In this document: positions 16,062 through 40,417 of the stretch, one piece after another
How positions within the stretch are numbered: the first letter of the stretch is position 1
Layout: each line of letters opens with the position of its first letter
Virus record (IMG/VR): IMGVR_UViG_3300042888_002665
Strand: one strand, 5' to 3'
Source of the DNA: a virus
DNA: 64,000 nucleotides
Translations under genes and position numbers: made by a program
Notes under the pieces: generated by a model
Seen by the model: only the letters and a program-made list of their open reading frames with translations
Databases searched by the model: none
What the model was told of the DNA's origin: nothing

Positions 16062-16391
16062 TTAGTAGTTTCTAATTTTGACTAATGATTTTTCACGTGG
16101 GAAAAATTTGACTAATCCATTAATACCTAAAGCAGAATCTTTAATCATTCTAATTGTCTCTTCAGGTGTACCTTCGTTAATAAATTTAATTTCAAGTAGT
16201 GCATAATCGTAATTAGCATCAGATAATGATTCTAATTTATCATTTGAAATAACTTTAATTACAACAATATCTTTAATTGCTCTAACTTGATTATAAATTT
16301 CGGTCTGGTTTGCTTTAGCTTTTTCTACCTTAATTATGGCTTGCATAAAGTAAGTTTCAAATGCCTCTAAAAGTAAATCTACTAATTTCAT
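16062..16391 (-). CDS. Hypothetical protein with MKLVDLLLE leader
   Basis: 109 aa ORF packed tightly in the operon; the leader ends in L-L-E. Confidence 0.6.
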   Translation of the reverse strand: MKLVDLLLEAFETYFMQAIIKVEKAKANQTEIYNQVRAIKDIVVIKVISNDKLESLSDANYDYALLEIKFINEGTPEETIRMIKDSALGINGLVKFFPREKSLVKIRNY

Positions 16392-16392
16392 A

Positions 16393-17547
16393 TTAAAATA
16401 TATAAATCGGTAATGGAACTTGTTGTAAAGTTTGGTTTACAAATCCTTCATCCATTGAACGTTTTTCTAATTGTTTTGTTCTAGAAGAATCTTCTAGTGT
16501 ACCACGTAATTGTTCTAACAATGCTATTTTTTCAGAACGAGCATCAGTAATTAAATCAGCTTGATTTAATGTTACTTCAGATCCTGGGATTGGTATGGTA
16601 CCGTACTTACCACGAACATATGCTAACATTTCTTTCACCAATGCTAGTGTGTATTGGAATACCCACATTTTACCTACTGAGTTAATCTGAGAATATACTG
16701 GGTTATTGTAAGGTACGTTAGATACATTTGTAACCAAATTGGTAGCTGATCCACTTATAAATGATTGATTACGTTCTGATTTCTTAATATAATGAAATAA
16801 TAAAGTAGTATCTGTTACTGGTATTGGAAATAATCTTAATTGATTGTTTATCAAATCAAACGAATATGCTGATTTTCTAACTTGGTCGTTTAATTCGATT
16901 GCTTGTAATTTTAGCATATCAAAATTCAATGGCATTAACATAAAGTTAATACCTGGAGAATATGATCCGAAGTTAAATGTTTCAAGTAATGATTGTATAC
17001 CTGTACCTGTACCAGCATATGGATCAAAATAACGAACAATTGCTGGAGGTGTTTGTTGGAATACTGTTTTAACTTCAATCGAATCGCCTGGTTGTAATGA
17101 TGCTGATTGTGCCGCCCAAGTATTTAAATTGTAATTTTGATTACCTGCTGTTATCGGAATTGAGGCTGTATACCAAGTTGTAGTACCACCAACACCAGCT
17201 TCAGAACCGTATGTTGAAGCAATTTTGATTGTAGATGATAAATTAGGAGTGATTACTTGGTTATTTAGAGCAGATCCAGTTGAGGATCCTTCCATCGAAA
17301 TATAATTTTCTCTAATTTTCCATTGATATACTTCGTTTCCGTATATTGTAACTGCTTCTTCGAATGCAGCATAGAATTGAATATCTTGTAATTCAATATT
17401 TTCGATTGGATATCCTAAACGTTGTGCACACCACTTTACTACTTTATCAGCATCGGTTCTAAATGTAGAATCGGCATCATAAAAACCAAACGGAGTAGAT
17501 CCAGTAGTAAAAAAAGTTGAACCAGTATATATTGCTATGTTAGCCAT
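16393..17547 (-). CDS. Neck protein (T4 gp13-like adaptor)
   Basis: RLGYP...IEL.D.Q......EA near the N-terminus and W..QY.LAL.KEML...RGKY..IP.PG..VTLN..DL...A..EK..L.E.L near the C-terminus are gp13-type motifs. Confidence 0.75.
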   Translation of the reverse strand: MANIAIYTGSTFFTTGSTPFGFYDADSTFRTDADKVVKWCAQRLGYPIENIELQDIQFYAAFEEAVTIYGNEVYQWKIRENYISMEGSSTGSALNNQVITPNLSSTIKIASTYGSEAGVGGTTTWYTASIPITAGNQNYNLNTWAAQSASLQPGDSIEVKTVFQQTPPAIVRYFDPYAGTGTGIQSLLETFNFGSYSPGINFMLMPLNFDMLKLQAIELNDQVRKSAYSFDLINNQLRLFPIPVTDTTLLFHYIKKSERNQSFISGSATNLVTNVSNVPYNNPVYSQINSVGKMWVFQYTLALVKEMLAYVRGKYGTIPIPGSEVTLNQADLITDARSEKIALLEQLRGTLEDSSRTKQLEKRSMDEGFVNQTLQQVPLPIYIF

Positions 17548-17569
17548 TAATCAGATATGTAGTGTTTGT

Positions 17570-17578
17570 TATAAATAT
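17570..17578 (-). promoter_or_regulatory. ATATTTATA putative late promoter
   Basis: Upstream of the gp13-like ATG 17547. Confidence 0.6.
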
Positions 17579-17595
17579 TGACTTAGTACACTATA

Positions 17596-18291
17596 CTATA
17601 AATCTCTTAATTCTTTATACATATTTAAAACTGACTCCACAATTGGATGTCTATGATTTGTTTTTAATGTAATAGCAGCTACTCCTTTTACAGATCCTGC
17701 TACTTGCTTTGATAGAAAATACATACCAGAATCTTTTTTAGATTTTAGATCTATCTGAGTAGTATCGCCTACAATCACCATTTTACTTCCTTTACATAAA
17801 CGAGATATTACCATTTCCATTTGGGAATCAGTAACGTTTTGTGCCTCGTCTACAATAATAAATGCATTTGAAAAGTTACGTCCACGCATAAATGCGAATG
17901 GAACGATTTCAATATCCCCCTCTTCAAAATACTTATCCACCTTTACTTTATCGTATAAACGATATGCATTATCGTATATTGGAGCAACAAATGGATCTAA
18001 TTTCTCTTTAATTCCGCCAGGTAAAAAGCCAATTTCTTCTTTAGCTGTTACTACTGGTCTTGCTATAATAATTTTTTCAACTTCCTTGTTAAATAGCTGA
18101 TCCAATGCTGTTTGGACTGCTACTAATGTCTTACCGCTTCCTGCCTGCCCTGTAATGATTGTTATATCATTTTCTAGAATTTTTGCTTTTGTTTCTTTTT
18201 GTTCTTCATTTAATTGAAGTTGGAACTTAATTGGACTTTTCGGTTTACGTTTTTCAGTAAACATTGGATCCGTGTGGTGATTTGAAGCCAT
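17596..18291 (-). CDS. phoH: PhoH-like ATPase
   Basis: GQAGSGKT, ARPVV, IGFLPG, FMRGR.F, DEAQN and GD..Q.D motifs. Start moved to MASNHH (18291) because the ORF-track start (18315) falls inside the ATATTTAT motif. Confidence 0.93.
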   Translation of the reverse strand: MASNHHTDPMFTEKRKPKSPIKFQLQLNEEQKETKAKILENDITIITGQAGSGKTLVAVQTALDQLFNKEVEKIIIARPVVTAKEEIGFLPGGIKEKLDPFVAPIYDNAYRLYDKVKVDKYFEEGDIEIVPFAFMRGRNFSNAFIIVDEAQNVTDSQMEMVISRLCKGSKMVIVGDTTQIDLKSKKDSGMYFLSKQVAGSVKGVAAITLKTNHRHPIVESVLNMYKELRDL

Positions 18292-18313
18292 AAAACTTAT
18301 TTTAGTTATCAGC

Positions 18314-18322
18314 AATAAATAT
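18314..18322 (-). promoter_or_regulatory. ATATTTATT putative late promoter
   Basis: Upstream of phoH ATG 18291. Confidence 0.55.
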
Positions 18323-18334
18323 AAAAAAATAACA

Positions 18335-18405
18335 TTTCCTAATTATATTCATAATATAAAAATATAATTTAAAATATTGTTGAAATTAATTTATTTCCCA
18401 ATTAT
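18335..18405 (+). promoter_or_regulatory. Tandem TTTCC(T/C)AATTAT motifs upstream of the RadA-like gene
   Basis: Copies at 18335-18346 and 18394-18405; the same motif precedes 32631, 34006 and 43052. Confidence 0.5.
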
Positions 18406-18436
18406 CTTTAATTTATAACTAAAAACAAATAATATT

Positions 18437-19231
18437 ATGAATAATCAAATTAAAAGAGGCCGTCCGGCTAAAGAAAGAGACGTGGTTGAAACATTCGATC
18501 CACAATCAATTAAAATTGTTTATAACAAACAATTAAATTTCAGTAATACATTATTTGAACCATTAAAAACAGAATCAGAACTAGATATGATTTTATCTAC
18601 TGATGGTGGTATAATGCCTGCTGTTAATATGGTTATTGTTGGTGGGCCAGGTACTGGTAAAACAACTATAGCATTAGATATGATTTCTAAATTGATTAAT
18701 CAAGGATATAAATGTTTATTTGTATCTGCTGAAATGGATGAAATTGGTTATTATAAGTACTGTAAGCGATTACCTCAATTTGAAAATATTCCTGTATTAT
18801 TTGCTAAAAATTATGCTACAAATATTAAATCAACAATCGAATACACATTCGATCAAGGTTGGGATGTAGTAGTTGTTGACTCGTTAGCTGAATTGGTTGG
18901 AATGTATAAAGAACAATATAAAACAACTGAATATTTTGCTGAACGTTGGTTATTAGGTTTAGAAGATCGTATTAAAAAGGGTAATAATCAGGGTAGTTAT
19001 TATACATCATTTATTAATGTACAACAAGTAACTAAAGGAGATGATTTTGTTGGATCAAACAGAATCAAACACATGACTGATTCGATGGCGCATATTGAAC
19101 GTTCTAGAGATAGATTACAGCGTACTATTTATTTTTCTAAAAATAGAGATTGCGATAAAGATTTTAAAATGTATTTTTCGTTTTATAAAGATAAAGTATT
19201 TTATACATTTGAAGAAGAAGAAAAACAATAA
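18437..19231 (+). CDS. RadA/Sms-like RecA-family ATPase (no Zn finger or Lon domain) with N-terminal AT-hook-like RGRP
   Basis: ELD.IL..DGG.......I.GGPGTGKTT (Walker A), VVVVDS (Walker B) and QVTK....GSNRIKHMTD...SKNR, which aligns by eye to RadA HVTK..GP..LEHMVD..KNR. Confidence 0.75.
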   Translation: MNNQIKRGRPAKERDVVETFDPQSIKIVYNKQLNFSNTLFEPLKTESELDMILSTDGGIMPAVNMVIVGGPGTGKTTIALDMISKLINQGYKCLFVSAEMDEIGYYKYCKRLPQFENIPVLFAKNYATNIKSTIEYTFDQGWDVVVVDSLAELVGMYKEQYKTTEYFAERWLLGLEDRIKKGNNQGSYYTSFINVQQVTKGDDFVGSNRIKHMTDSMAHIERSRDRLQRTIYFSKNRDCDKDFKMYFSFYKDKVFYTFEEEEKQ

Positions 19232-19242
19232 ATAACTATAAT

Positions 19243-20022
19243 ATGCGACACAATTTTATTCCAGTAAATTCATTTGATAAAGCATTAGCTTTTGCTCCGT
19301 CCATGCATCTAAATTTTAGAGATGATCAACTAATTAAAAGTAAACCATATACTATTAATACACAAGATATTTTAAACCCATTAATGGATTCAGGATGGAA
19401 TATTGACGGTGTAGCTGAAAAACGCAAAGGTAAGAATGGCCAAGTAAATCAACATTTTATTAAACTAACACATCCTGATCTGAATCTGAACGTTAAATCA
19501 AATAATGAAGGTAAATCGCAGTTATTAATCTCTAATAAAGTATGCGGCAGTTCACCACTCAATATAGATTTAGGAGTATATCGTCAAGTATGCAGTAATG
19601 GAATGTGGGCGATGGATACCGCGTGGGAAAACAATATATCACATACTAAACGCTCATTCGATAATCTACCTAATATTATTCAATCAACTGTAAATAATGT
19701 TAATGAATTTATGAAAAAGTTAAATCAAATGGCTAATGTTGATTTAAATGAAGATGAGATGAATGATTTAGCTGAACGTGCTGCTCGTTTACGTTTTGGT
19801 GATGATGTTGAGCGTCATATTATTAATCAATTATTAGATGTTCGTCGTAAAGAAGATGCTGATAATGATTTATACACTGTGTATAATCGCGTTCAAGAAG
19901 GATTAACCAAAAATAATATATTAATTAATCTACAAGGTAAACCATTATTAGGTGTTAATAATATAAAAGAAGATATTGAAATTAATAAACAATTATTTCA
20001 ATTAGTTGAAGAATATATTTGA
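19243..20022 (+). CDS. DUF932-family protein
   Basis: G.YRQVCSNG and RR.ED..NDL.TVYNRVQE.L motifs are characteristic of DUF932. Confidence 0.8.
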   Translation: MRHNFIPVNSFDKALAFAPSMHLNFRDDQLIKSKPYTINTQDILNPLMDSGWNIDGVAEKRKGKNGQVNQHFIKLTHPDLNLNVKSNNEGKSQLLISNKVCGSSPLNIDLGVYRQVCSNGMWAMDTAWENNISHTKRSFDNLPNIIQSTVNNVNEFMKKLNQMANVDLNEDEMNDLAERAARLRFGDDVERHIINQLLDVRRKEDADNDLYTVYNRVQEGLTKNNILINLQGKPLLGVNNIKEDIEINKQLFQLVEEYI

Positions 20023-20051
20023 TAATTATTATTTGTTTTAGAGTTAAAGAA

Positions 20052-20072
20052 GGCCGACGTTTTGCGTCGGCC
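20052..20072. terminator. Bidirectional intrinsic terminator between the convergent DUF932 and capsid genes
   Basis: GGCCGACG-TTTTG-CGTCGGCC 8-bp stem, with a T-rich tract downstream on each strand. Confidence 0.85.
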
Positions 20073-20099
20073 ATTCTTTTATTCTAAAAATTAGAAATA

Positions 20100-21773
20100 T
20101 TAAAATCCTAATGTTTCTAATCCGTGTACAAACACCTTACCGTAGAATTCAGGACGAACCATTTTCTTAGCGTAACGAGTCATCAAACCTTTACGTGGAG
20201 TAAATGTTTCTGGATCGTAAACTAATGGAGTCATGATCAATGGAATGTATGGAGCATAAACAGCACCAGTTTCAAGGAATTGAGATCCTTTATAACCCAT
20301 CAAGATTTGGTTAGAAGTCAAGTATGGATTCTTGTAAACTTTGTAACGAGAATTTAATGAACCGATTTTCTGGATACCAAATCCGAATTCTGATTTCTCA
20401 CCATCACCGTCAGTAGCAAATCCTGGAATAGATTCTAATACTGTAGCAACTGCTGGAGAACAAACTAAGAAGTTAGCACCACCACGCAATGTCTTTTGGT
20501 GAATTTTGTTAGAAACTTGTTGCAATACAGTTCCGATAGTTTGGAACCATTCGCCTTGAGAGTTGTAGTATCCTGAGATATTACCTGAAGCTGAGTTAGC
20601 AGATACAGTTGTGAAACCTGAACCGTTCCAGAATGTATTGTTAGCAGCTGACCAGTAACCAGTAGTTGCAGCATTGTCGATCAACATAGATAACAATTCT
20701 AAGTCAACTTCCATTGCAATGTAGTTAGACAACATAGAAGTAACTTCAGATTCAGCATCTACCGAGTGGTATGCGTTCAAATCTTGAGAGAATTCTGGTG
20801 TCCATTGTGCTTTCAATTTACGAGTCTTAGCAACGATAGCTTCTGATTTCAATTTAATATCAATTGAAGGGATAGCTATTTGAGAAGAAGACTCAGAGTT
20901 TGGATAACCAGCACCTGAAGCATCTTCAAAATCACCACGAGCATCTACAGTAGTTGCTTTAGGGTAAGTTACTGAGTAGTTTTGGCTACCAAGACCAACT
21001 ACTGAACCAGAAACAACTAAAGTAATTGTACCGTTAGCATTCAAAGTAGTAAATTCATTGATTACGTTAGCAGCTGATACTGAACCAGCACCTGAGCCTG
21101 AAGAAATTTCAATAGCTTTAACCGCGTTATCATCTAAACCAACTAATGAACCTGAACCTAAAGTAATTGTACGAGCTGAAGATCCAATTGAAGATGAAGC
21201 AGCTGAGTTATAATTAAATGTAGCAATAGAAGTTGATCCAGAAGTACCAGCAATACCTGCAGATGCAGTAGTATTGATTGAATATCCGAAACGTCCCTCA
21301 CCATATAAACCACCAGCTACGTCTAAGTTTTTAACGTTTGGATGATTTTCTGCTTGATTACCATATAAAGAAGCAGTTCCAAAACCAGCTTTACCAGCTG
21401 TAGATGCCATTCCTAAGTTTGAATATTTGAAATCCAAATAGAATACTAGACCTGAAGGTAAAGACATTGGTTGTACAGAAACGAATTCTTTAGCAACGAT
21501 TTCACCGAATACACGGCGAACTAAAGGCAAAGCAACACCAGCCCAGTTCTCGCCAGACCCACCTGACATAGAAGTAGTACCACCAGTTACGTTTGCTTCT
21601 TGAACCAATGCTTTAGCTTGGTTTTCCAAAATTACCGCCATATTATTGCGGTCATACTCACTGTTAAGGTTTTTCAATAAACCTGTTTTTTCCCATTTTC
21701 CAACTAATTTGCCAGCTTCTGCTTGACGATCTTGGAACGGATTTGCGCTTTCTAAAAGACTTTGTACGTTCAT
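20100..21773 (-). CDS. gp23: Major capsid protein (T4 gp23-like)
   Basis: LPLVRRVF...VSVQPM..PSGL.FYLDF.Y, I.AKTRKLKA.WTPE..QDL.AYH..DAE.E and GAVYAPY.PL...F.P.KG.MTRYA motifs. Confidence 0.97.
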   Translation of the reverse strand: MNVQSLLESANPFQDRQAEAGKLVGKWEKTGLLKNLNSEYDRNNMAVILENQAKALVQEANVTGGTTSMSGGSGENWAGVALPLVRRVFGEIVAKEFVSVQPMSLPSGLVFYLDFKYSNLGMASTAGKAGFGTASLYGNQAENHPNVKNLDVAGGLYGEGRFGYSINTTASAGIAGTSGSTSIATFNYNSAASSSIGSSARTITLGSGSLVGLDDNAVKAIEISSGSGAGSVSAANVINEFTTLNANGTITLVVSGSVVGLGSQNYSVTYPKATTVDARGDFEDASGAGYPNSESSSQIAIPSIDIKLKSEAIVAKTRKLKAQWTPEFSQDLNAYHSVDAESEVTSMLSNYIAMEVDLELLSMLIDNAATTGYWSAANNTFWNGSGFTTVSANSASGNISGYYNSQGEWFQTIGTVLQQVSNKIHQKTLRGGANFLVCSPAVATVLESIPGFATDGDGEKSEFGFGIQKIGSLNSRYKVYKNPYLTSNQILMGYKGSQFLETGAVYAPYIPLIMTPLVYDPETFTPRKGLMTRYAKKMVRPEFYGKVFVHGLETLGF

Positions 21774-21798
21774 TTTTTTTAAATTAAATTTTTTAAAA

Positions 21799-22836
21799 TT
21801 ATTTACCGAAGGCTAATTTTTCCCAACGGTTGTATTGAGCATCAGTTTCGATTACTTTAGCACCGCTATTAGTAATCATTCCTACTGCTTTTGAAGCAAA
21901 ACCAACTGATTCTTTAATCGCAGATTTTGTTTCAGCTTTCTTAGAGAATGAAGTAATTATTGATTCGTAAACCAATTTAGCTTCTTTCGCTGATTCAGCT
22001 TTGTCAAAAGTTTTAACTACGTCGATCTTTTGTGATTCAGTTAAGTTAGTACCTTTGAATACTTTATTCATGTAAAGTAATTTTGCGTTTAGCAAATTAA
22101 CTTCTTGAATTGAAGAACGAAGTTCATCGATTGTAGCTAAAGCTTGAGCTAATTCTTCTTCCATTTTAGATTTAGAATCATCTTCGTCTTTGCCATATCC
22201 TTCTTCTACTTCTTCTTCTTCTGATAGACCGAATTCAGCTAATAATTCGTCGATATTAATGTCATTTTCATCCATTTTATCTTCGTCTTTATCATCATAC
22301 ATTTCGTCGATCATTTCGTCTAAGTTGATTTCTTCTTCTTCACCGGCAGCATCAGCTCCTAATTCAGCATCTAAATCGATTTCTTCTCCACCGTCTTTGC
22401 CAGGAATTTCCTCGCCTTGTTCAGTTTCTAATTTTTCGAATTCTTCAGCCGCAATTTGGCGAATATATTCTTCAACTTCTTCAGGCGACATTTCAGTGAT
22501 ATCTTTATCTTCTTCTTTTTCGCCTTCTTTTTCTTCACCTGCTTCAGGTGCTTCTTCAGATGCTTTTTCTTCTGCTTCTTTTTCTTCTTCATCATCAGCC
22601 TCAGCTAATAATGCTTCTAAGTCAAGAGTTTCTTCCATTTGATCGTCTGCTTTTTTAGCTTCTTCCATCTTGTCTTCGTCTTCTTCCTCCATCTCGTTTA
22701 ACTTTGCAGCTAACATAGATTGTAATTGTGGAGTGAAAGCTTCTTCAAGAGCAAGTTTAGCATTAGCAAGAGCAGTTTCACGAACGGCTTTAGCATCAGC
22801 AATAGCATCTTTTAAAATTTGCTTTGTGTTACTCAT
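21799..22836 (-). CDS. Prohead core scaffold protein (T4 gp22-like)
   Basis: Very acidic coiled-coil protein directly upstream of the capsid gene, with many [LIM]xE sites. Start moved to MSNTKQIL (22836) because ATG 22941 lies inside the promoter motif. Confidence 0.8.
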   Translation of the reverse strand: MSNTKQILKDAIADAKAVRETALANAKLALEEAFTPQLQSMLAAKLNEMEEEDEDKMEEAKKADDQMEETLDLEALLAEADDEEEKEAEEKASEEAPEAGEEKEGEKEEDKDITEMSPEEVEEYIRQIAAEEFEKLETEQGEEIPGKDGGEEIDLDAELGADAAGEEEEINLDEMIDEMYDDKDEDKMDENDINIDELLAEFGLSEEEEVEEGYGKDEDDSKSKMEEELAQALATIDELRSSIQEVNLLNAKLLYMNKVFKGTNLTESQKIDVVKTFDKAESAKEAKLVYESIITSFSKKAETKSAIKESVGFASKAVGMITNSGAKVIETDAQYNRWEKLAFGK

Positions 22837-22938
22837 TTTATCCTTAATTTTGTTTTTGGAAATAAGATTATTATGAATCTTAATGGGGGTTGTACTTGTT
22901 TTTGTGATACCATATAGACATGGTATATTTGAGTCTGC

Positions 22939-22947
22939 CATAAATAT
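22939..22947 (-). promoter_or_regulatory. ATATTTATG putative late promoter of the scaffold/capsid operon
   Basis: About 100 nt upstream of ATG 22836. Confidence 0.55.
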
Positions 22948-23036: not shown

Positions 23037-24008
23037 TTATTTAATTCCAGCGTAATGTTGCCATCTGCTGATTGTCCATTCGTCTAATTCTTTTGATTCA
23101 CTGTATGTTCCTTTTTTACCTGATTCCGGTGTTAATTCTACTTTACCGTTTTCTGGAGCACCTATGTTATATATTTTATTACCTAACATAGCTTTAAGGA
23201 TGTTATTAAGGAACGTAATTTCTGGTTTTACCGTCTCACCGTCTAAAGTATAAGTATACTTTTCGTATTTTGCTATTTTATCATCATTTGATTCTTGTGC
23301 TTCATCTAATGAATTGATATTTACATCCTTAACTGAATTATCTTCAAATCTAACTCGAGCTCTACGTTCGCCAGTTTCATCATCCATTTTCATAGATGTG
23401 ATTTTTGCTTTTTTACCTGCTACTGTAACGTTGTCTCCGATTGAATAATCATCAAATGATGATTTTGGTTGAAATGCTTCGTCTAATCCGTTATAGAATT
23501 TTCTTGCTTCGTCTTCAGATTCAAATGATTTTTCTTTAGTACCATCTGCTGTGCTGTACGTAACAATCCAGAAACGACCTTCTTGTTCAATACTAGATGT
23601 TTCGTTATGTCCTAAATTAGCTTCATCCATTTCTCCATGCTCACCACCATTACTATATTCGTGATATCCTTGAGATGCTTGATCGATAAAGTTTTCTGAA
23701 TTGGTAATATGATCTTGTATCCAAGCTGGAATGTTAATTTCTTGATTACCAATTTTAGCTTTCAATTCCATTGCTGAACGAAGAATTGAATTTAATGAAC
23801 GTTGTGCCATCGATACTTCGTGGTCTTCTTCTTCAGCTAATTTTTTAGCTTTATCAGTTGCAATTGCATACATAGCAGGAGCAGGACCTTTAAAATCCTT
23901 CTTCATTGCTTTAACAATCTCTTCACGTTTTTTTTCTTCAGCAGCTGTTAATTCTTTTTCAGCAACAATTTTAGCTACAGTTTCTTTTACGATTTGTTCT
24001 AAGTTCAT
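23037..24008 (-). CDS. Multi-module head-associated protein (candidate internal-protein polyprotein)
   Basis: Lies between the protease and scaffold genes. Small modules are separated by IVAE, KLAE, EMDE, GLDE, SLDE and ELDE. Confidence 0.6.
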   Translation of the reverse strand: MNLEQIVKETVAKIVAEKELTAAEEKKREEIVKAMKKDFKGPAPAMYAIATDKAKKLAEEEDHEVSMAQRSLNSILRSAMELKAKIGNQEINIPAWIQDHITNSENFIDQASQGYHEYSNGGEHGEMDEANLGHNETSSIEQEGRFWIVTYSTADGTKEKSFESEDEARKFYNGLDEAFQPKSSFDDYSIGDNVTVAGKKAKITSMKMDDETGERRARVRFEDNSVKDVNINSLDEAQESNDDKIAKYEKYTYTLDGETVKPEITFLNNILKAMLGNKIYNIGAPENGKVELTPESGKKGTYSESKELDEWTISRWQHYAGIK

Positions 24009-24637
24009 TATATATTATCAAAATCACAGGTACAGAATCCTGTGCGGTTACAAATAATTTCAGTAATTAAGCTATCTATTTTAGAATAGTCTTTTGATGG
24101 TTTTGAATATGAAATAGATTCATTTACTACTTCCATATACGCACCTGGTGTAGATGGAGTTGAAACAAAATCCCAACACATTAATTCAAAATCGTCTTGT
24201 ACCTCAATTGTTTCACCAATTTGACGTACAGAGCCCATTCCACGAGACGAGATACCTACGGTGATATTGTTATTAAATAATTCTTTCAATATATTGCCCG
24301 ATGGTGTAGGTAATATTTCAATTTTACCATGAAGTTCGCGCCCCTTCCAATATAAACTTACAATGTTGTGTGATACATTTTTTAAGTTAATGATTGGAGA
24401 ATCTGGATGGTCTAATTCACCTAATGCACGACGTTCTTTAACTGGTCCTTGTAGGTATTTATCAGCTTCACGCTTTAATACTTCATATGGATAAACACGT
24501 CCATTACCATTTTTGGTTTCAGCCATTTGTATTAATCCTTCTACAAACATTTTACCGTTTGGATTCATCATCGACTCCTTCAATGATTGAGGAGTAGCGG
24601 TAAATAAGGCTGTTTCTATTAATAATTGCTTATCCAT
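24008..24637 (-). CDS. gp21: Prohead protease (T4 gp21-like)
   Basis: NGNGRVYP, ALGELDHP (His), GISSRGMGS (Ser) and DFVS.PS motifs. Start MDKQLLIE at 24637 overlaps the upstream stop (ATGGATAA). Confidence 0.93.
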   Translation of the reverse strand: MDKQLLIETALFTATPQSLKESMMNPNGKMFVEGLIQMAETKNGNGRVYPYEVLKREADKYLQGPVKERRALGELDHPDSPIINLKNVSHNIVSLYWKGRELHGKIEILPTPSGNILKELFNNNITVGISSRGMGSVRQIGETIEVQDDFELMCWDFVSTPSTPGAYMEVVNESISYSKPSKDYSKIDSLITEIICNRTGFCTCDFDNI

Positions 24638-25148
24638 TAGATCTTTCATTCAAGATACGACCAACTAAAATGATCATTTCATCTTCAGTCAATTTATCCA
24701 TTTTAACTTTTTTAACACCGTTTGCAGCGTCTACAAAGTTATCTTTTTTAACTTCAATAGGTAAATCAGTACGTTTTTTACGATCAACTTTCATTGCTGA
24801 TTCATCATATCCAGCTAAATGAAGTTGAGAATAATAAGCAGCATTATCTTTTAAGTTTTTACAAACGATCTTATCAGCTTTTAATTCTTCAGTACCTTTA
24901 TCTAATTCATAGCGCATTCCTAAATTATATTCTTGAGGATTGCACCACTCATTTGGCATACCATACTCCATTGGAGATGATTTTTCTTCAGTAATGATAC
25001 CTTTGTTTTTTAAGATTTTAACAGCATCACCAAATGATGTTGTATTAGAAATAAATTTAGGTAATGCCATTTTTACATTACGCAAAAATTGAGCTTGACC
25101 CAATGTTCCTTCATTTAATGCTTTATATTGATCGAATATGCTTTTCAT
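24630..25148 (-). CDS. Head-module hypothetical protein
   Basis: 172 aa in the operon. Contains the Y..GM.YE...A..IV.KNL.....YY.QL pattern and ALNE/IITE/LTE sites. Confidence 0.6.
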   Translation of the reverse strand: MKSIFDQYKALNEGTLGQAQFLRNVKMALPKFISNTTSFGDAVKILKNKGIITEEKSSPMEYGMPNEWCNPQEYNLGMRYELDKGTEELKADKIVCKNLKDNAAYYSQLHLAGYDESAMKVDRKKRTDLPIEVKKDNFVDAANGVKKVKMDKLTEDEMIILVGRILNERSNG

Positions 25149-25624
25149 TATTCTTTTAAATTTTTAATTTTCTTGTCTAATTCAGTTAATCGTGTTGATA
25201 TTTCTTCTAATCCACGAATGGAATTAGTTAAATAATTTTCAGTGGTTAGGCTATTTTCGTTACGTAAACGAATACTGTAATCAACGATTTGATTAACTTC
25301 ACGTAAACGTTTTTTAATACCTAATATTGCTTTTGAAATTTTACGTTCAGGAGTAACTTCTGATATTGTTTTATTAAATGAACGATATGATACTTCATTA
25401 ATCGGATCTTGTCCTTCGTATTTAACGAATTCGAATGTTTTACCTGATTTAGGTACTTTACCTACTACTTTATATCCTAATTTTTCAGCTGTTTTAGTGG
25501 CTCTGTTTTTACCACCTTTAGAAAATGCAAATTTAGTCATGTATGCTTCTCCTCCAGATGTAGCATTTTCTTCATCTAAAATTTCAGCTATTGCTTGACG
25601 TATCAATTCACGTAATTTTTCCAT
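25148..25624 (-). CDS. Head-module hypothetical protein
   Basis: 158 aa. Leader MEKLRELIRQAIAEILDE, a coiled-coil C-terminus and overlapping start/stop codons. Confidence 0.6.
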   Translation of the reverse strand: MEKLRELIRQAIAEILDEENATSGGEAYMTKFAFSKGGKNRATKTAEKLGYKVVGKVPKSGKTFEFVKYEGQDPINEVSYRSFNKTISEVTPERKISKAILGIKKRLREVNQIVDYSIRLRNENSLTTENYLTNSIRGLEEISTRLTELDKKIKNLKE

Positions 25625-26478
25625 TATGCTGTTCTTAACTCGTGTAATAATTCGTAATAATTCATTAAATTCAATACATCATCATCAGATATATTTTCCG
25701 ATTTAGGGATCATATTTAGTATATTATTTACTTCTGATAATTTGATTTGTATTTTTTTATCTGTAATTTTAGATGTTAATACTTCTAATTCTAACTTAAC
25801 GTTTTGAATTTGATTATTAACGTATTCTTTTAATGATACAGTATTGGATATGTTCTTAATGAATTCAGACAATAATGTTTTTTGTTCTGGTAGTAGATCT
25901 GTATATTTTGAGTTGAAGTTTTCAACTACCATTTTATAGATCATCATACGTGTGCTTTTATCTTGCTTAGCGTATTCTTCCATCACTTGATCCTTTACTA
26001 CTGCTTTATCTATTGATTTATTAGTTAAAAACTCAAGTAAAGTTACTCGGTTATCAATAACGATTTTAGGATCAGTAAATTCAGCTGAAGTATGTGCTTC
26101 CATTAAATTAAAAATGGCAGCATTAATTTTATAGTTTTGAATCTTAGCTTTAAAAAAATCTTCTAAGTTATAATTTTCCTTGATGTCTTTAATCAAGTTA
26201 TATTTTTCCTTACGTAATGCAGTTTTATTTAATTTTTCAGATAATTTTAAGATAGTTTCAACTAAGCTATCTGCTTTTGATTCGGCTAATGATTGTACAT
26301 TAATTAATGTTTGATATAATTTGTGTTCTTTAGCTATTTCCGTATTTGAAAAATATTTTTTAACTAAAGTAGCCGCGTGTGGTTCTTTATTAGACAAAAT
26401 ATCACTAGCAATTTGGCGCACTAATAGCTCAAATAATATGCCAGTGTTTTTGTATTTAGAATTTTTTAATTTAGACAT
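25624..26478 (-). CDS. Conserved helical head-module protein next to the portal gene
   Basis: 284 aa, K.SK.KNTGILFELL.RQ N-terminus, has its own promoter motif. Confidence 0.65.
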   Translation of the reverse strand: MSKLKNSKYKNTGILFELLVRQIASDILSNKEPHAATLVKKYFSNTEIAKEHKLYQTLINVQSLAESKADSLVETILKLSEKLNKTALRKEKYNLIKDIKENYNLEDFFKAKIQNYKINAAIFNLMEAHTSAEFTDPKIVIDNRVTLLEFLTNKSIDKAVVKDQVMEEYAKQDKSTRMMIYKMVVENFNSKYTDLLPEQKTLLSEFIKNISNTVSLKEYVNNQIQNVKLELEVLTSKITDKKIQIKLSEVNNILNMIPKSENISDDDVLNLMNYYELLHELRTA

Positions 26479-29976: not shown

Positions 29977-30710
29977 TTAATCCAGTTTTCTAATGCTTTT
30001 AAATATCCATCACCCATATGGTCTTTGACAGTTTTGCCTGAAAATAATGCTTTAAGATATAACCAAAGTGATCTTAATGATGATTCTTTTTTTAATATAT
30101 TACCATCTGTATCTAATCTTACTTGGTAGTTTACGTGATGAAATCTAATATATGGTACATGAGTTACTAAATCGTTTTTATGTACGATTCGTAGAGTATC
30201 TATACCACTATTATCGTAATTTTCTTTGAATACTTTATTACCAACTCTAGGACTACCAATAGTTGTTGATTTAACGTTATAATGTGGGTAATGTTTTTTA
30301 ATTGAGTGTGCATACAATGTTGCTACTGCTCCACCTAAACTATGCCCACAAACTACAATATCTGTAGCTTCACCTTGTAGATTTTCTAATGCAGTATCGA
30401 TTGCATCATATGTATCACCTACTACTGATTCCCAGGAACTCTTGAATCCAATATGTACTTTCTCACCTTCGTTTATAAATGGTACTTTATCAATTGAAGC
30501 ATCGTTTTGAAAATCCTTCTTTGATTCGCTGCCTCTCCACACAACATATATAGTTTTATCTTTTACTGCTACAAATCCTTGTGTGTCTGATTTTTTATGT
30601 TCGATCCATTTTACTAATTCTAATCCATAATCATCCCATATGATTTGATCTTGGTTGGAATAAGCTAACACTGCTAATTTAGCGTTATATAATGCTTCGT
30701 TTCTTGTCAT
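29973..30710 (-). CDS. Lipase class 3 (alpha/beta hydrolase)
   Basis: VVWRGS, VH.GF, GHSLGGA nucleophile elbow, GSPRVGN and D.V..VP motifs. Confidence 0.92.
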   Translation of the reverse strand: MTRNEALYNAKLAVLAYSNQDQIIWDDYGLELVKWIEHKKSDTQGFVAVKDKTIYVVWRGSESKKDFQNDASIDKVPFINEGEKVHIGFKSSWESVVGDTYDAIDTALENLQGEATDIVVCGHSLGGAVATLYAHSIKKHYPHYNVKSTTIGSPRVGNKVFKENYDNSGIDTLRIVHKNDLVTHVPYIRFHHVNYQVRLDTDGNILKKESSLRSLWLYLKALFSGKTVKDHMGDGYLKALENWIK

Positions 30711-30797: not shown

Positions 30798-31748
30798 TTA
30801 TACTTCTGCTTCAGCGTCTTCAGCGCCAACGATAGCGGCAGCATCTCTAGTTTCTTTATCAGAAATTTTAGGTATACCGTATTTCTTTTTAGTGATACGG
30901 AATTTTTTAGCTAATTCTAAAGTAACTGGATCTTGTGTTTGAATTAATCCATCAGCATATTGTTGAGCAATTTCTTGTCCTAATTCATCATCGTTAGCTA
31001 CCATAGATTGCATTTTATCAACATATTGTTGTTTTCCAGCAGCGTTATCAGCCTTACGATAAGCTTCACGAGCACGTTTGTAATCTAATGTTTTAGCAGC
31101 TAATGCTGCGCGATCTGCAGGAAGCATGTAATCTGGATTAGCTTGAGTAGCAGCAGTATACTCAATATCACGACCGAATTTTGAACCGCGGTCTTGAGAT
31201 GGAGTAACCACACCAGTTGCTTTTTCAAATCCTGTTGACACATCTTTTTGTGAGGCACTAAACGGCAGTTCATCATATGATATTTTTTTCTTTCCAATCG
31301 CACCAATTACTAGTGGACGAATAAAAGATTGTTGTGATGCATATTGACGATCAGGATTAGCTTCGTTATGAAACTTTAAAATATCTGTAGCTGTTAATGC
31401 TTCGCCTTTATCTTTTAATACTTTAACTATATCAACTAAACTTCTAAATTCTGATTTTGATAATTTACCTTGTACACTTTCTAATTCACCACGAAAATCT
31501 GGTTTCAGTGAGTATTTTACTTCAGCAGCACGAGCCATTTCTTTAATTGATGTATTTCCAAGTGTAGCAGCTTTAACTGTTGGGTCTTTTTTTATAGCAT
31601 CTATTGTTTCTTTATCACTAGGATCTACATTTATTATTTTGTCCCCTTTATTAGCATCAGCGTAATCAATAGTCATTGGTTTAGTAGCTTCACCCATGAT
31701 CTCCTCACGTACTATTTTATTAATTATTTCTTTTAATTTATCTTCCAT
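30798..31748 (-). CDS. Hypothetical protein with amphipathic leader ending IMGE
   Basis: 316 aa, with its own promoter motif and terminator. Confidence 0.65.
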   Translation of the reverse strand: MEDKLKEIINKIVREEIMGEATKPMTIDYADANKGDKIINVDPSDKETIDAIKKDPTVKAATLGNTSIKEMARAAEVKYSLKPDFRGELESVQGKLSKSEFRSLVDIVKVLKDKGEALTATDILKFHNEANPDRQYASQQSFIRPLVIGAIGKKKISYDELPFSASQKDVSTGFEKATGVVTPSQDRGSKFGRDIEYTAATQANPDYMLPADRAALAAKTLDYKRAREAYRKADNAAGKQQYVDKMQSMVANDDELGQEIAQQYADGLIQTQDPVTLELAKKFRITKKKYGIPKISDKETRDAAAIVGAEDAEAEV

Positions 31749-34065: not shown

Positions 34066-34110
34066 ACAGATCCATTTTTAATATTAAGTCGAACGGCTAT
34101 GAATCGTTCT

Positions 34111-35564: not shown

Positions 35565-35566
35565 TA

Positions 35567-35995
35567 TTACAATTGAGTAGAATCGATTGCAACTTCTTCA
35601 ACTGATTCTTCAGTTTCTAGAACTTCATCTTTTTCCTCTGGCTTCTCGTCTTTTTTGTCAGACTTAGCACTTTTTTTCTTACCTTTTTTATCAGCGTCTT
35701 TACCGCCTGACATTTTTTCCTCAAGTTCCAATCGAGCACCTTCATATTCATTTATTGATTTGTCCATCTCTTCCATTACTTTAGCGTATAATTTTTCGCC
35801 TAAATAGTGAGATAAGTTAATTTTTTCCATTAATCCTTTTACTTTACCCGCTTTATCAGCTTCTTGCTGAATACGAGCCATTTTTGCTTCGTTTGCTGCG
35901 ATATCACCAGCCTCATCAATTTGAGCGATACGGTGAGAAACTGCTTCAGCAATCATTGACTTAACTAAAGCACGTAATTTTTCTTTCTGATTCAT
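35567..35995 (-). CDS. Hypothetical coiled-coil protein with leader ending MIAE
   Basis: 142 aa in the operon. Confidence 0.6.
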   Translation of the reverse strand: MNQKEKLRALVKSMIAEAVSHRIAQIDEAGDIAANEAKMARIQQEADKAGKVKGLMEKINLSHYLGEKLYAKVMEEMDKSINEYEGARLELEEKMSGGKDADKKGKKKSAKSDKKDEKPEEKDEVLETEESVEEVAIDSTQL

Positions 35996-36624: not shown

Positions 36625-36636
36625 ATCTTTATTGTT

Positions 36637-37956
36637 TTACCATTTTTTACAAGACCAATAATTAGCTTTCCAACGTGGTCCTGGATTACTGCAATTATGT
36701 CTTGCTCTATACGCTGCACGGCGTTTTGGATTTTTAGCTTTAATAACCATTCGTTTACCTTTAGCTGATTTACCTCCAAAACCGAAGTTAACTTTTACAA
36801 CTTTACCTTTAGCGTTTTTAACGTATACTTTAAATTTTTTAATATCTCCTTGCATGATTTTACCTAATTGAACTTTACGTCCTCGGTATTCAGCTTCGGT
36901 TAATTTAGATTCAGTTAATTGACGAGAGTATTCCTTCATAAACATAATGAATCCCTCATAATCCTCTTTACTTTCTACATCATATTCTTCAGTTAAATCA
37001 GCTCCAATATCGTTTACATCTTGGTATGCATATTTATTTGAAGGTTCGATAGTACCTAAAATTACTTGTGGGTTTATACCTTTTGCTCTAGCAACCATTA
37101 AACGAGTATTACCACCTACTAAATAATACTTATTCGGAGAATATTGGAGAATCAACGCGGGAGGTGTTTTTTCAGCGGCTAATATGCTTTGAATATCTTT
37201 GCCGTAATAACGCGCCAATTCAATCGCTTCTTCCTCGGAATTTATATCGTATGAGTCGGTATTTTCTAAACGACTCCACATTTCATCAGTTAATGTAACT
37301 TCTTTGCCACTTGTGAATGAATTATATACTACATCATATGGTAGACCTAATTCATCTGCTGTACGTTCTATTTCCTCGTTTTCGGCTTGTAAAATAGGAA
37401 TCCACAATAGTGGAGATTTACTTTCTAAACGTACTTTAGCTTTATCTGTATTTGGAACAACACGATCGCCTTTACGATCAGCAGCAGCTTTTTTACGAGC
37501 AGTAGCAGCGCGTTCTTCTTTAGATAATGAATTTGCTTTAGCACGAGGTAAGCAACGAGTTGTTGCTTGGCCTTTTTTCATCGTACCACACGGACCTGTT
37601 ATATTACCTTGGGTATCGATTCGTACCCAATCTTCCTTTTTAAACCAATCACGTAGTGATTCGTTCATGTCATACTTTTCAGTATTATCATGTCCGCACT
37701 TATGACAAAGAAATGGTTCTTTACCGCCGTCTTCTAAATTCCATTCCCAACCGCAGTTTTCACATTCGACTGTTTCTTCATCTCCTTCCATTAATCCCTT
37801 ACATACTTTAACAGCACGACCCGATAAATAAGCAGATGGTACTTCACCAGCAGCTATACGACGATTATAATAAGCTCTACCTTTAGGGCATAGCTTTTTT
37901 TCTATAAGTGATTGAATAGATTCACTAATTAATTTATGTAGTTCTTCTTCAGTCAT
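36637..37956 (-). CDS. Multidomain protein: Cys module + Zn ribbon + DUF5872-like + ParB/Srx-like + DUF6321-like
   Basis: PSAY.SG.AVKVCK; CENCG...CHKCG; LRDWFK.EDWV; YYLVGGNTRL (ParB-like); VNFG...NPKRR..YRARH.C...ANYWS.K.W. The DUF names are from recall and unverified. Confidence 0.65.
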   Translation of the reverse strand: MTEEELHKLISESIQSLIEKKLCPKGRAYYNRRIAAGEVPSAYLSGRAVKVCKGLMEGDEETVECENCGWEWNLEDGGKEPFLCHKCGHDNTEKYDMNESLRDWFKKEDWVRIDTQGNITGPCGTMKKGQATTRCLPRAKANSLSKEERAATARKKAAADRKGDRVVPNTDKAKVRLESKSPLLWIPILQAENEEIERTADELGLPYDVVYNSFTSGKEVTLTDEMWSRLENTDSYDINSEEEAIELARYYGKDIQSILAAEKTPPALILQYSPNKYYLVGGNTRLMVARAKGINPQVILGTIEPSNKYAYQDVNDIGADLTEEYDVESKEDYEGFIMFMKEYSRQLTESKLTEAEYRGRKVQLGKIMQGDIKKFKVYVKNAKGKVVKVNFGFGGKSAKGKRMVIKAKNPKRRAAYRARHNCSNPGPRWKANYWSCKKW

Positions 37957-37967
37957 TTTTATATAGA

Positions 37968-38384
37968 TTATTTATCTGTTATAGGACCTCCAACAACCCA
38001 AGCATTACATGTTCTAGCAGCAGCACATTTAAATTTTAAAAATCTGCAGTATCCTAATTCTCCAGCATTTATTACATCGAATGGGTCTTCTGTTCCTTCA
38101 TCATCGCCTATTCCTTTAGCAATACAATCTAGTGTTTTAGTTGTAATATCGAATGCAGCACAATTAGCACATAATGATTTTTTAGCTTCTTCTGCAGAAT
38201 CTAATTTCCACATGTCAACTTTAACTTGCCAAAATTTTTCATTTGGTTCATTAGGATTTAATGGACCATATCCATACTCATTAATTGCCTTTTGTCTATT
38301 TTCAAGATTAAGTTCTATGTTTTGAGTTGGAGCAGGACACTCATTTATCTCAACTTCACTTAATATATTGATTAATTTAATCAT
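37968..38384 (-). CDS. Cys-rich conserved phage protein
   Basis: Seven Cys (CP..TQ, CANC, GYC...FKCAA.RTC.AW); leader MIKLINILSE. Confidence 0.65.
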   Translation of the reverse strand: MIKLINILSEVEINECPAPTQNIELNLENRQKAINEYGYGPLNPNEPNEKFWQVKVDMWKLDSAEEAKKSLCANCAAFDITTKTLDCIAKGIGDDEGTEDPFDVINAGELGYCRFLKFKCAAARTCNAWVVGGPITDK

Positions 38385-38554
38385 TATTTTCCTTTATTTT
38401 TTATCTTATAATATATCTGTACTCCTAACCACCCAATAGATAGGATGTAAAATAGACCAGTAAGTACAGGATTTAACATAGAAAAGAAGCTATTAAATAA
38501 TGCTATACACGTTGTTGCTACCCCGGCAGCATTTAGCTCATTTGATTGATGCAT
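38384..38554 (-). CDS. Small membrane protein (holin-like candidate)
   Basis: Two hydrophobic segments and a basic C-terminal tail (YKIKNKGK). Start moved to MHQSNEL because ATG 38587 is inside the promoter motif. Confidence 0.45.
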   Translation of the reverse strand: MHQSNELNAAGVATTCIALFNSFFSMLNPVLTGLFYILSIGWLGVQIYYKIKNKGK

Positions 38555-38584
38555 TTTATTAAGAAGAGATAAAAATGTTATGAC

Positions 38585-38593
38585 CATAAATAT
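38585..38593 (-). promoter_or_regulatory. ATATTTATG putative late promoter
   Basis: Upstream of the 38554 gene and its downstream cluster. Confidence 0.5.
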
Positions 38594-39180
38594 TAACTAT
38601 TTAATTTAGCACGGGATTCTTCTATGTCTTTCATTACTTGTTCGCGTATTTTCTGTTTATCTAAAGCTTTTACATGCCAATCTTCAATATCACCTTGTTC
38701 AGTTACGAATCCATTATTTGAACTCATCGAATCTAAAAATGAATCAAATCCATTTACAAATTCATCTAATGCAAAATTAGCATTTGCTTTAACAATTTTA
38801 TCTTCGTATTCTTGATATTTACCATCTATTTTAAGTTGTGATTCCATTTTAATTACACAATCAAAACAAGTTTTATGAAGTATAAACATTTTTTTATCAT
38901 ATTCAGTTTTCATAGGTTTTGAACATGATGGGCATAATAATGGAGTAAATACAGCTTTTTTAGCTCTATCTAATTTAGTAACGCTCATTTTAATGCCGTT
39001 TCTTAATGTCCATTTTCTACCAAACTCCTCCCAAACATCACCTTCATTTCGGTCGATTTGTTTAGTAGTATATCCTACTTGTGTTTGAGTAGCTTCACCT
39101 TGCTTGCCCGACAGTAGATTACGAATACGTTGTACGTCTCGTTTTTGGAATTCTTTTTTTAATAACGTTTCTCTTGACAT
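38593..39180 (-). CDS. Zn-finger-containing hypothetical protein
   Basis: CPSC...H..CFDC; the GD.W.E.G..W...NG motif precedes it. Confidence 0.6.
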   Translation of the reverse strand: MSRETLLKKEFQKRDVQRIRNLLSGKQGEATQTQVGYTTKQIDRNEGDVWEEFGRKWTLRNGIKMSVTKLDRAKKAVFTPLLCPSCSKPMKTEYDKKMFILHKTCFDCVIKMESQLKIDGKYQEYEDKIVKANANFALDEFVNGFDSFLDSMSSNNGFVTEQGDIEDWHVKALDKQKIREQVMKDIEESRAKLNS

Positions 39181-39181
39181 A

Positions 39182-40417
39182 TTATAACCCTAATTTTTGT
39201 AGTTGTTTTATTGTTGATTCTGTAGATGTATGGCGAATACCAATTCCACCTGCATCTATCCATTGTTGGATATTATCTTTTCTATCATCAATTAATATAG
39301 CATTTGGTTCTGCTAAATCTTTTTTATCTTTTGCTTGTTTAAATATAACTGGAGTAGAAGGTAAATTATTATTTATCCATTCTTGTTTACCTATTTCTGA
39401 TGATTGTTCACGTGATGGAGCAGTTAATAATTTAGGATTATATTGTTTAATGTAATCCCATAATTGTTGTCCATCAGACATCCAATTTAACTCAGCCCAA
39501 AATTTAGCACCTGCTTTAGTAATTGCAGACCAAAAATCATTTTTATCGTATGTTGAATCAACACCCGGTGTTTGCTTGCCTGTTAAATCATTATACCCAC
39601 GTTCAAAATCAACTAGTACCCCATCCATATCACAATATACTTTATATTGTTGTTCGCCTTCAGCTAACATCGCAATTTTAGATTTAGCTGAATCTAGTGT
39701 ATCAGTTTGGGGAATTTGTTTAACTAATAAAATTATATCTTGATTTAATTGTTCAGCATCTGCTTTAGCTTTAGCTTGTTCTTCTGGTGTTTTAGGTTTG
39801 CTAGTGAATTTAGCTGTATCAAAGTATAATTTTTTAACTTCAGCGGGATCAAATGTTTTATTAGCATCTTCAGGATCGTTATTAATTAATATAAAACGAT
39901 CACCAAATTCTTGACGATATATCTCAATGTTTTTGTTTGTATCTCTCCAAGTACGTAACACAATTTGAGGTAGTAATGAACGTTCGCGTTCAGCATTACG
40001 CTTTAAAGATGTCATAGGTGAAACATATAACATTAACATCATTGTATCGTATCCTAATGCTTCTAATTCTGCTTTCTTTTTGAATAGCGGTTTAGAGGCA
40101 GCACCAGTACCATCAATAATAACGTTATTTAATCCTTCAAGCGCTTTAGCATATTTTTCTTTAGTAGCTCCTTGAGCTTGGCCCATTAATTTAGCTGCTT
40201 GAGATAATTCTTCAGGACCAAAATCTTTTAAATTAGTACCTAAACCAGATGATTTAAGTAATTCTTCGTATGTATCGTCTACATTTATTACTTGATATTT
40301 TTCAACTGGAAGTAATTGTTTTAATGTATAAGTTTTACCTGAGCCAGCAGGACCAGCTAAAAATATTGCTTTAGGTTTACCAGTTATTTCTTGTAGTATA
40401 TCAAATAATTTTATCAT
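39182..40417 (-). CDS. Fusion: zeta-toxin/AAA_33-like P-loop kinase + HAD 5'(3')-deoxyribonucleotidase (NT5C-like)
   Basis: N-terminal AIFLAGPAGSGKT...IN.DD...IIDGTG...RN..R.R. C-terminal VYCDMDGVLVDF...LTAP...LIDDR..NI..W...GG.GI.H. Confidence 0.85.
   Translation of the reverse strand: MIKLFDILQEITGKPKAIFLAGPAGSGKTYTLKQLLPVEKYQVINVDDTYEELLKSSGLGTNLKDFGPEELSQAAKLMGQAQGATKEKYAKALEGLNNVIIDGTGAASKPLFKKKAELEALGYDTMMLMLYVSPMTSLKRNAERERSLLPQIVLRTWRDTNKNIEIYRQEFGDRFILINNDPEDANKTFDPAEVKKLYFDTAKFTSKPKTPEEQAKAKADAEQLNQDIILLVKQIPQTDTLDSAKSKIAMLAEGEQQYKVYCDMDGVLVDFERGYNDLTGKQTPGVDSTYDKNDFWSAITKAGAKFWAELNWMSDGQQLWDYIKQYNPKLLTAPSREQSSEIGKQEWINNNLPSTPVIFKQAKDKKDLAEPNAILIDDRKDNIQQWIDAGGIGIRHTSTESTIKQLQKLGL

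Follow-up and report, generated by a model that had tools for sequence, protein, structure and literature searches.

Candidate T4-type capsid-targeting propeptides on unrelated proteins of an environmental phage related to Flavobacterium phage immuto

Otherwise unrelated proteins encoded by the IMG/VR virus record IMGVR_UViG_3300042888_002665, of which a stretch of 64,000 nucleotides (hereafter the window) was analysed, share short N-terminal peptides that are probably capsid-targeting propeptides of the type known from phage T4, to be read by a prohead protease of the gp21 (Peptidase_S77) type. Each tag would form a short amphipathic helix ending in the seven-residue pattern h-x-x-h-h-x-E (h, hydrophobic; hereafter the heptad), either as a decapeptide of 9-10 residues or as the end of a helix of 12-20 residues. 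We infer that the tag would dock its protein into the assembling prohead core, that the S77 protease would cut after the Glu of the tag during maturation, and that the mature protein would remain in the head and exit with the DNA. A preliminary description of the window had quoted ten such leaders, all of which are present on the minus strand at the N-termini reported, and had read them as T4-type targeting leaders for a gp21-type protease on ten or more cargo proteins. The core of that idea is favoured by all of the in silico tests that were run, while the extent of the cargo was overstated, and the count that we would defend is about five to eight predicted processed proteins, two to five of which would be non-core cargo.

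Protein comparisons identify the source of the window as a Bacteroidota myovirus that is distantly T4-like and closest to Flavobacterium phage vB_FspM_immuto (hereafter immuto), a 160-kb myovirus. The gp23-like major capsid protein (MCP; 20100-21773, minus strand) is 57-64% identical to that of immuto and resembles, more distantly, the capsid proteins of Microcystis, Rhodothermus, Pelagibacter and T4-like phages, and the gene order within the baseplate, fibre, replication, head and neck modules is immuto-like. A megablast search of the region against cultured phages gave no match. Almost all window genes lie on the minus strand, with A-rich upstream regions that lack Shine-Dalgarno sequences, and the start sites of the genes with quoted leaders are secure because most of their start codons overlap the stop codon of the preceding gene by 1-4 nt. 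Four related genomes were compared, namely the window, immuto, G2 (a complete IMG/VR contig of 166 kb) and G3 (an IMG/VR contig of 139 kb); counts for the three relatives are genome-wide, and those for the window cover 68 proteins.

Enrichment at N-termini is weak for the bare motif [ILMV]-x-E of the earlier description and pronounced for the heptad. With Glu at residue 8-22, the bare motif was found at 25 of the 68 N-termini versus 17.0±3.0 in internal windows, and it also matches primase, MCP, PhoH-side and tail proteins, such that the earlier statement that tail, baseplate and primase N-termini are free of it is not strictly true. As this count is too unspecific, pattern and profile tests were used instead. 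The heptad, ending at residue 8-20 and with its expectation derived from internal density, is present on 10 of the 68 proteins versus 1.7 expected (p ~1e-5, which, like the other heptad p-values, is generous because the motif was defined after looking at the data), and nine of the ten are among the leaders originally quoted. The heptad was also in excess in immuto (22 versus 6.7), G2 (17 versus 4.8), G3 (15 versus 6.5) and T4 (16 versus 6.9), where the matches include IPII, IPIII, gp24 and Alt. Staphylococcus phage K, used as an AT-rich control (30% GC, without an S77 protease), had neither a heptad excess (14 versus 9.6, p = 0.1) nor an excess of N-terminal similarity (18 pairs versus 17-20 internal).

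When 692 proteins of the four genomes were clustered by their first 30 residues, 106 similar N-terminal pairs (E≤0.01) emerged among proteins with non-homologous bodies, compared with 11-20 for internal or C-terminal segments, i.e. about eight times more often. The clusters comprised signal peptides (a positive control), a tail-fibre adaptor, a decapeptide class, a class of amphipathic helices of 12-20 residues and two classes found only in the relatives. The decapeptide, M-I-K-L-x-[DN]-[IL]-L-x-E, heads the window genes at 39182-40417 and 37968-38384 and, in shortened form, that at 16062-16391, and its strict pattern gave nine N-terminal and no internal matches in 164,000 positions. The longer helices head the genes at 25148-25624, 35567-35995, 36637-37956, 30798-31748, 23037-24008 and 56457-56765. 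Where homologues of the 138-aa product of 37968-38384 carry leaders of differing classes, only L-x-x-x-L-x-E is invariant in the aligned leaders, and it is from this alignment together with the T4 leaders that the common core h-x-x-h-h-x-E was derived. The two classes confined to the relatives, from immuto and G2, are a 12-mer with the sequence M-E-N-F-D-L-K-K-F-L-x-E, which heads at least five proteins, and a 22-mer ending L-A-G-I-I-T-E, which heads two.

The tags behave as modules across relatives and environmental phages. A degenerate DNA pattern for the decapeptide gave at least 102 matches in IMG/VR, with tags of the form M-I-K-L-K-D-L-L-x-E among them; among the matches listed, 96 coincide with the first ATG of an open reading frame (ORF) of at least 40 aa, and the tag, invariant at five positions, heads 55 unrelated, BLAST-distinct body families, most of them without a Pfam match. 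At the conserved Ile, Leu, Asp/Asn and Glu positions, synonymous codons alternate freely (six are used for Leu) while the amino-acid pattern is fixed, which suggests that selection acts on the peptide. The 138-aa protein of the window and an 85-aa protein of G3 share identical upstream DNA and the first 11 residues, the remainder being unrelated, and in G3 a further gene, for 177 aa, has been inserted along with second copies of the junction and tag. Some homologues of the kinase, NT5C and NMNAT-like proteins have an N-terminal extension of about ten residues ending in h-x-E and others lack it. For example, a query of 1.8 billion cluster representatives with the kinase-phosphatase encoded at 39182-40417 returned stand-alone kinases and NT5C enzymes whose sequence opens at the first strand, other kinase and NT5C homologues with about ten added residues ending in h-x-E, some very like the T4 capsid targeting sequence (CTS), and long multi-domain chains opening with a tagged or untagged NMNAT-like domain. 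G2 encodes kinase, NMNAT-like and NT5C proteins as separate genes, each with its own leader, whereas the window has a fused kinase-NT5C with a single leader. The immuto phages, grown on Flavobacterium sp. LMO8, have leaders of the types described here, and the leader of the immuto NT5C ends L-L-L-E. Among other cultured relatives, the phiM12 NT5C protein is untagged and the HTVC008M kinase has only the short start M-I-P-F-I-L-K-E. The tagged proteins that can be recognised are nucleotide or nucleic-acid enzymes (kinase, NT5C, NUDIX and exonucleases).

The head module of the window reproduces the T4 order 20-67-68-21-22-23 and comprises, from high to low coordinates, TerL (the large terminase, 28405-29976), the portal (26514-28343), a 284-aa protein, a 158-aa protein, a 172-aa protein, the S77 protease (24008-24649, minus strand), a 323-aa protein, the scaffold and the MCP. 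The protease belongs to the T4 gp21 family (PF03420, 3.7e-26, 92 bits; phrog_207, 9e-53), and it retains the catalytic His and Ser in the alignment columns of T4 His85 and Ser140. Near its N-terminus it carries the sequence Q-L-L-I-E/T (24614-24649, minus strand; slashes mark cuts, known or predicted), which aligns with the N-terminal site of gp21 itself, removed in T4 by self-cleavage (PMC9958956). Similarly, the predicted MCP propeptide (21597-21773, minus strand) ends in L-V-Q-E/A at residue 59, and L-V-Q-E/A-N-V-T-G aligns with L-T-E/A-E-I-G-G of T4 gp23, which is cut at Glu65/Ala66 (PMC9958956). The sites that had been noted in the capsid (LVQE) and protease (LLIE) are real and aligned to known T4 cleavage sites, and the predicted specificity of the window protease, cutting after Glu in h-x-E, is conserved at the MCP and protease sites homologous to the T4 cuts. 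Tags also travel with S77 proteases in IMG/VR: of the nine long contigs with a tag that were searched, seven encode such a protease, among them each of the three with a completeness of 90% or more.

Sites of the form h-x-E are densest, within the window, in a 142-aa protein encoded at 35567-35995, the scaffold, and the 158-aa and 284-aa proteins. The acidic scaffold (21799-22836, minus strand), a predicted analogue of gp22, has 23 such sites and the second-highest density in the window; T4 gp22, with 21 sites, likewise ranks second in T4. The longest ORF of the scaffold gene (21799-22941, minus strand) begins 35 codons early, every relative starts at M-S-N-T-K (Met at 22836), and M36 of this ORF is the probable true start. 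The helical 284-aa protein next to the portal gene (25624-26478, minus strand), conserved in all four genomes and with 15 h-x-E sites versus 7.3 expected from composition, is likely to be a prohead core component without an N-terminal tag. In the relatives, a very basic 45-aa protein with the common motif R-P-G-V-H-A-K-S-K-T-S-K is encoded in or near the head cluster (contig L024, 9052-9189; immuto, 111063-111200) and may be a DNA-binding head protein; no counterpart was seen in the window.

Three of the ten proteins with quoted leaders lie within this head cluster. The preliminary description had treated the leader-bearing proteins as non-structural, which does not hold for these three: their positions match those of T4 gp67, gp68 and gp22, so they are expected core proteins rather than cargo, and each of them is likely to be a processed core protein. 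The 158-aa protein (25148-25624, minus strand), with a high h-x-E density, has an 18-residue amphipathic leader (25571-25624), and in the orthologues the conserved body follows a leader that is of this type but differs from it. The gene for the 323-aa protein (23037-24008, minus strand) sits between the protease and scaffold genes, and its amphipathic leader of 9 or 17 residues (23958-24008), which fits the heptad, is retained in the G3 orthologue. The 172-aa protein (24630-25148, minus strand) has a 13-residue leader ending L-N-E (25110-25148), the weakest motif fit of the set, with A-I-Q-E/G in the same place in the immuto orthologue and T-G-E in that of G2.

Leader profiles cross-recognise in both directions between the window group and T4, although with false positives in T4. 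When a profile of the decapeptide was run over 258 T4 N-termini, gp24 ranked 1st, Alt 7th, gp67 22nd and IPII and IPIII 28th-29th (Mann-Whitney p = 0.005); the first of these, gp24, has a 10-residue N-terminal peptide that is removed by gp21 (PMC3012670, PMC9958956). Conversely, a profile built only from T4 gp24, Alt, IPII and IPIII placed the window genes at 25148-25624 (the 158-aa protein), 39182-40417, 37968-38384 and 16062-16391 at ranks 1, 3, 4 and 5 of 68. Two further T4 N-termini of this kind were observed, namely the CTS-like start M-K-T-F-K-E-F-I-K-E of an uncharacterised 54-aa ORF (18966-19130, minus strand) and the N-terminus of RNA ligase 1 (rnlA, 136340-137464), which fits h-x-x-h-h-x-E.

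Every feature of the T4 CTS and gp21 system that can be looked for in sequence was found in the window. In T4, the CTS of IPI, IPII, IPIII and Alt and the 10-residue propeptide of gp24 are all removed by gp21 (PMC3012670, PMC9958956). As in T4, the window group has a peptide of about ten residues at the N-termini of unrelated proteins, with the core h-x-x-h-h-x-E and a predicted cut after Glu, together with a homologous S77 protease, homologous MCP and protease cleavage sites, variable bodies behind a conserved tag and tagged genes in tandem arrays. Compared with T4, the window group would tag a larger number of proteins in each genome and use no fewer than three interchangeable kinds of leader (the decapeptide, the 12-mer class of the relatives and the helices of 12-20 residues); its tagged bodies include a kinase-phosphatase and multi-module proteins, and its host phylum is Bacteroidota.

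Partial analogies exist in other phages. The giant phages phiKZ, 201phi2-1 and SPN3US are reported to hold many head-internal proteins, some of them enzymes, that are matured by a T4-related protease cutting after Glu (PMC5694885, PMC7411985, PMC10052503). The window group would resemble them in having enzymes among the head-internal proteins and a T4-related protease cutting after Glu. Giant-phage propeptides are long and mutually unlike, with the site S/A/G-x-E, in contrast to the window leaders, which are short, share a recognisable sequence and have a hydrophobic P3 residue as in T4. The Dar proteins of phage P1 (DarA, DarB and Hdf) are described as head-loaded and injected anti-restriction proteins for which a capsid-targeting region is discussed (PMC9024508, PMC12810830). 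The loading of enzymes and defence-countering proteins into the head, and their injection, would be common to both systems. Packaging of the Dar proteins depends on an ordered hierarchy of proteins and not on a common cleavable decapeptide, and P1 is not known to have an S77 protease homologue. A search of the open literature (full text) for the CTS returned only T4, its close relatives and T4 vectors, along with the analogies in giant phages and P1.

Outside the head cluster, candidates differ in how readily they fit capsid targeting. Of the ten proteins with quoted leaders, eight are without a Pfam or functional PHROG match, their bodies are mutually unrelated and, by Pfam, PHROG and ESM Atlas, all candidates other than a 411-aa protein are virus-only orphans. 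Capsid targeting is a reasonably probable assignment for the two proteins with the full decapeptide, which are this 411-aa protein and the 138-aa orphan. The former (39182-40417, minus strand; tag M-I-K-L-F-D-I-L-Q-E, 40388-40417) joins a P-loop kinase (Pfam Zeta_toxin/AAA_33) to an NT5C-type HAD phosphatase (PHROG NT5C) and is the only recognisable enzyme among the candidates, to which the earlier description of some cargo as enzymatic is reduced. Its tag is retained in 117 of 120 close homologues. In the AlphaFold2 (AF2) model, with a predicted local distance difference test score (pLDDT) of 91, residues 1-10 are the lowest-confidence block (62) and form a short helix before strand 1. By Foldseek, the kinase domain is nearest to zeta/PezT toxins and the C-terminal domain to 5'(3')-deoxyribonucleotidases, and both domains align to T4 Pnkp (2ia5, 1ltq) with E ~5e-7 and TM scores of 0.28-0.40. 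A PDB sequence search produced no informative match for the kinase-phosphatase and, for the adjoining nucleotidyltransferase, at best a weak resemblance to phosphopantetheine adenylyltransferase. The Cys-rich 138-aa protein (37968-38384, minus strand; tag M-I-K-L-I-N-I-L-S-E, 38355-38384) has the same tag as the 85-aa protein of G3 with its unrelated body, and among its homologues with other leader classes L4, L8 and E10 are invariant. Its AF2 model (pLDDT 43) gave no usable structure, and a search of the ESM Atlas returned virus-only orphan clusters for this protein and no match for a 316-aa orphan.

This 316-aa orphan belongs, with the 142-aa protein and a 439-aa protein, to an island for which capsid targeting is plausible at slightly below even chances. 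The 439-aa multi-module protein (36637-37956, minus strand) has a leader of 12 or 19 residues (37900-37956) that fits the heptad; in G3, an unlike leader is followed by a near-identical body starting directly after Glu, and comparison with this 638-aa orthologue indicates that one module has been exchanged between two h-x-E junctions. The exchanged module is a Zn-ribbon in the window and ParB-like in G3, and the Zn-ribbon recurs, together with a K-D-P-F-G-L-N linker, in long NMNAT-kinase-NT5C chains elsewhere. The 142-aa protein (35567-35995, minus strand) has a 17-residue leader (35945-35995) fitting the heptad and, at ten sites in 142 residues, the densest h-x-E in the window. The 316-aa protein (30798-31748, minus strand) also fits the heptad with its leader of 15 or 20 residues (31689-31748), and in a near-identical phage the leader is identical, residues 21-65 have diverged and the remainder is conserved.

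For the two remaining candidates the assignment is weaker. The 109-aa protein of the neck cluster (16062-16391, minus strand) starts with M-K-L-V-D-L-L-L-E (16365-16391), a possible leader that matches the decapeptide pattern, and its orthologues have shorter N-termini still ending in h-x-E; no body swap was seen and there is no clear boundary between leader and body, and capsid targeting is only tentatively suggested. It is doubtful that the 102-aa protein of the baseplate cluster (56457-56765, minus strand), which has an amphipathic N-terminal helix fitting the heptad (56706-56765), is head cargo. The earlier figure of ten or more cargo proteins is too generous because of the three core proteins, the missing leader-body boundaries of the 102-aa, 109-aa and 142-aa proteins, the heptad misfit of the 172-aa protein, the T4 false positives and the baseplate location of the 102-aa gene. 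The primase (42111-43052) was also considered as a tagged protein and rejected, as its L-L-E lies within a helix that is conserved into the fold and the Glu is missing in G2.

Several observations weigh against the tags being T4-type capsid-targeting propeptides. The heptad was defined only after inspection of the data, the leader of the 172-aa protein (24630-25148) misses it, and about seven of the 16 T4 matches are expected by chance. Within T4 the decapeptide profile is unspecific, its top seven including RnlA, cd.1 and others that are not known as packaged. Boundaries are also not universal: the leader of the 142-aa protein and the sequence that follows it are equally conserved in G3, so that no boundary is visible, and in all orthologues of the 102-aa protein conservation continues past the proposed Glu, its gene moreover lying between baseplate genes. 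A nucleotide kinase-phosphatase has no obvious role inside a capsid and, as its untagged homologues are presumably cytoplasmic, the tag could address another shared partner. The NMNAT-like protein is untagged in the window and tagged in G2. The co-occurrence of tags with S77 proteases lacks a proper background rate. Finally, the literature searched yielded neither virion proteomics nor N-terminal sequencing or packaging results for this phage and its close relatives.

An alternative is that the tags are a shared address for a partner outside the prohead, such as an enzyme that modifies proteins, a chaperone, or an enzyme complex or replication compartment in the cytoplasm, with the Glu serving recognition rather than cleavage. 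The recognisable tagged proteins, being kinases, NT5C, NUDIX and exonucleases, are normally cytoplasmic, and a comparable N-terminus is present on T4 RnlA, a protein not known to be packaged. Such an address is nonetheless unlikely, given that the core of the tag matches the experimentally cleaved T4 leaders position by position and the profiles cross-recognise, that the homologous MCP and protease cuts follow the same h-x-E rule, that tags co-occur with S77 proteases, and that three tagged proteins are encoded inside the head-core gene cluster. Moreover, no other conserved candidate partner gene was seen beside the tagged genes in the four genomes.

It is also rather improbable that only the head-cluster proteins are protease substrates and that the other leaders are amphipathic helices with a chance h-x-E in an AT-rich proteome rich in Lys, Glu, Ile and Leu. 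The near-absence of enrichment of the bare motif (25 versus 17±3), the false matches in the primase and a baseplate protein, and the heterogeneity of the helices of 12-20 residues, two of them without a boundary, would be consistent with this explanation. In contrast, the decapeptide is invariant at five positions in the 55 unrelated families and almost never internal, bodies are exchanged exactly behind the tag, the AT-rich phage K has no N-terminal excess, and the variation at synonymous sites points to selection on the peptide. That the conserved 5' gene ends are DNA or RNA elements, such as cassettes for recombination or signals for starting translation in a host that lacks Shine-Dalgarno sequences, encoding a functionless peptide, is very improbable: the tag and upstream junction are duplicated as DNA in G3 and the genes are tightly coupled, with A-rich upstream regions and no Shine-Dalgarno sequence, but the codons of the conserved residues vary synonymously (six Leu codons) within a fixed amino-acid pattern, and different leader classes retain only the h-x-x-h-h-x-E residues.

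Capsid targeting of the tagged proteins, if correct, would have consequences beyond this phage. Outside T4, P1 and a few giant phages, injected proteins have been findable only by virion proteomics, and a tag that serves as a capsid address would allow packaged and injected proteins to be read from sequence in uncultured T4-like phages. A broader and more tentative proposal is that h-x-x-h-h-x-E could be a portable capsid-loading address across environmental S77 phages, heading dozens of unrelated families (kinase-phosphatase, NMNAT-like, NUDIX and exonuclease modules among them) and delivering nucleotide- and RNA-handling enzymes and orphan effectors with the phage DNA. Proteins injected with the DNA act before phage gene expression and are therefore prime candidates for countering host defences, and the tagged families, most of them orphans, would supply candidates for effectors that act early in infection. 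By means of the tag, foreign proteins might also be packed into the heads of non-coli phages.

A second type of modular N-terminus was observed on the fibre-like proteins encoded at 10830-12554 and 12898-13860 (minus strand), which share the adaptor M-x-x-W-K-K-h-h-V-S-G-S with immuto and G2 fibres that have unrelated bodies; this adaptor is presumably a baseplate attachment piece. A class-3 lipase/esterase (29973-30710, minus strand; PF01764, 3.6e-31) is encoded directly upstream of TerL and carries no tag. The only sizeable plus-strand genes of the window lie at 18437-20022, between PhoH and the MCP, and the second of them encodes a DUF932-like protein with 27% identity to an immuto protein that is encoded elsewhere in the immuto genome.

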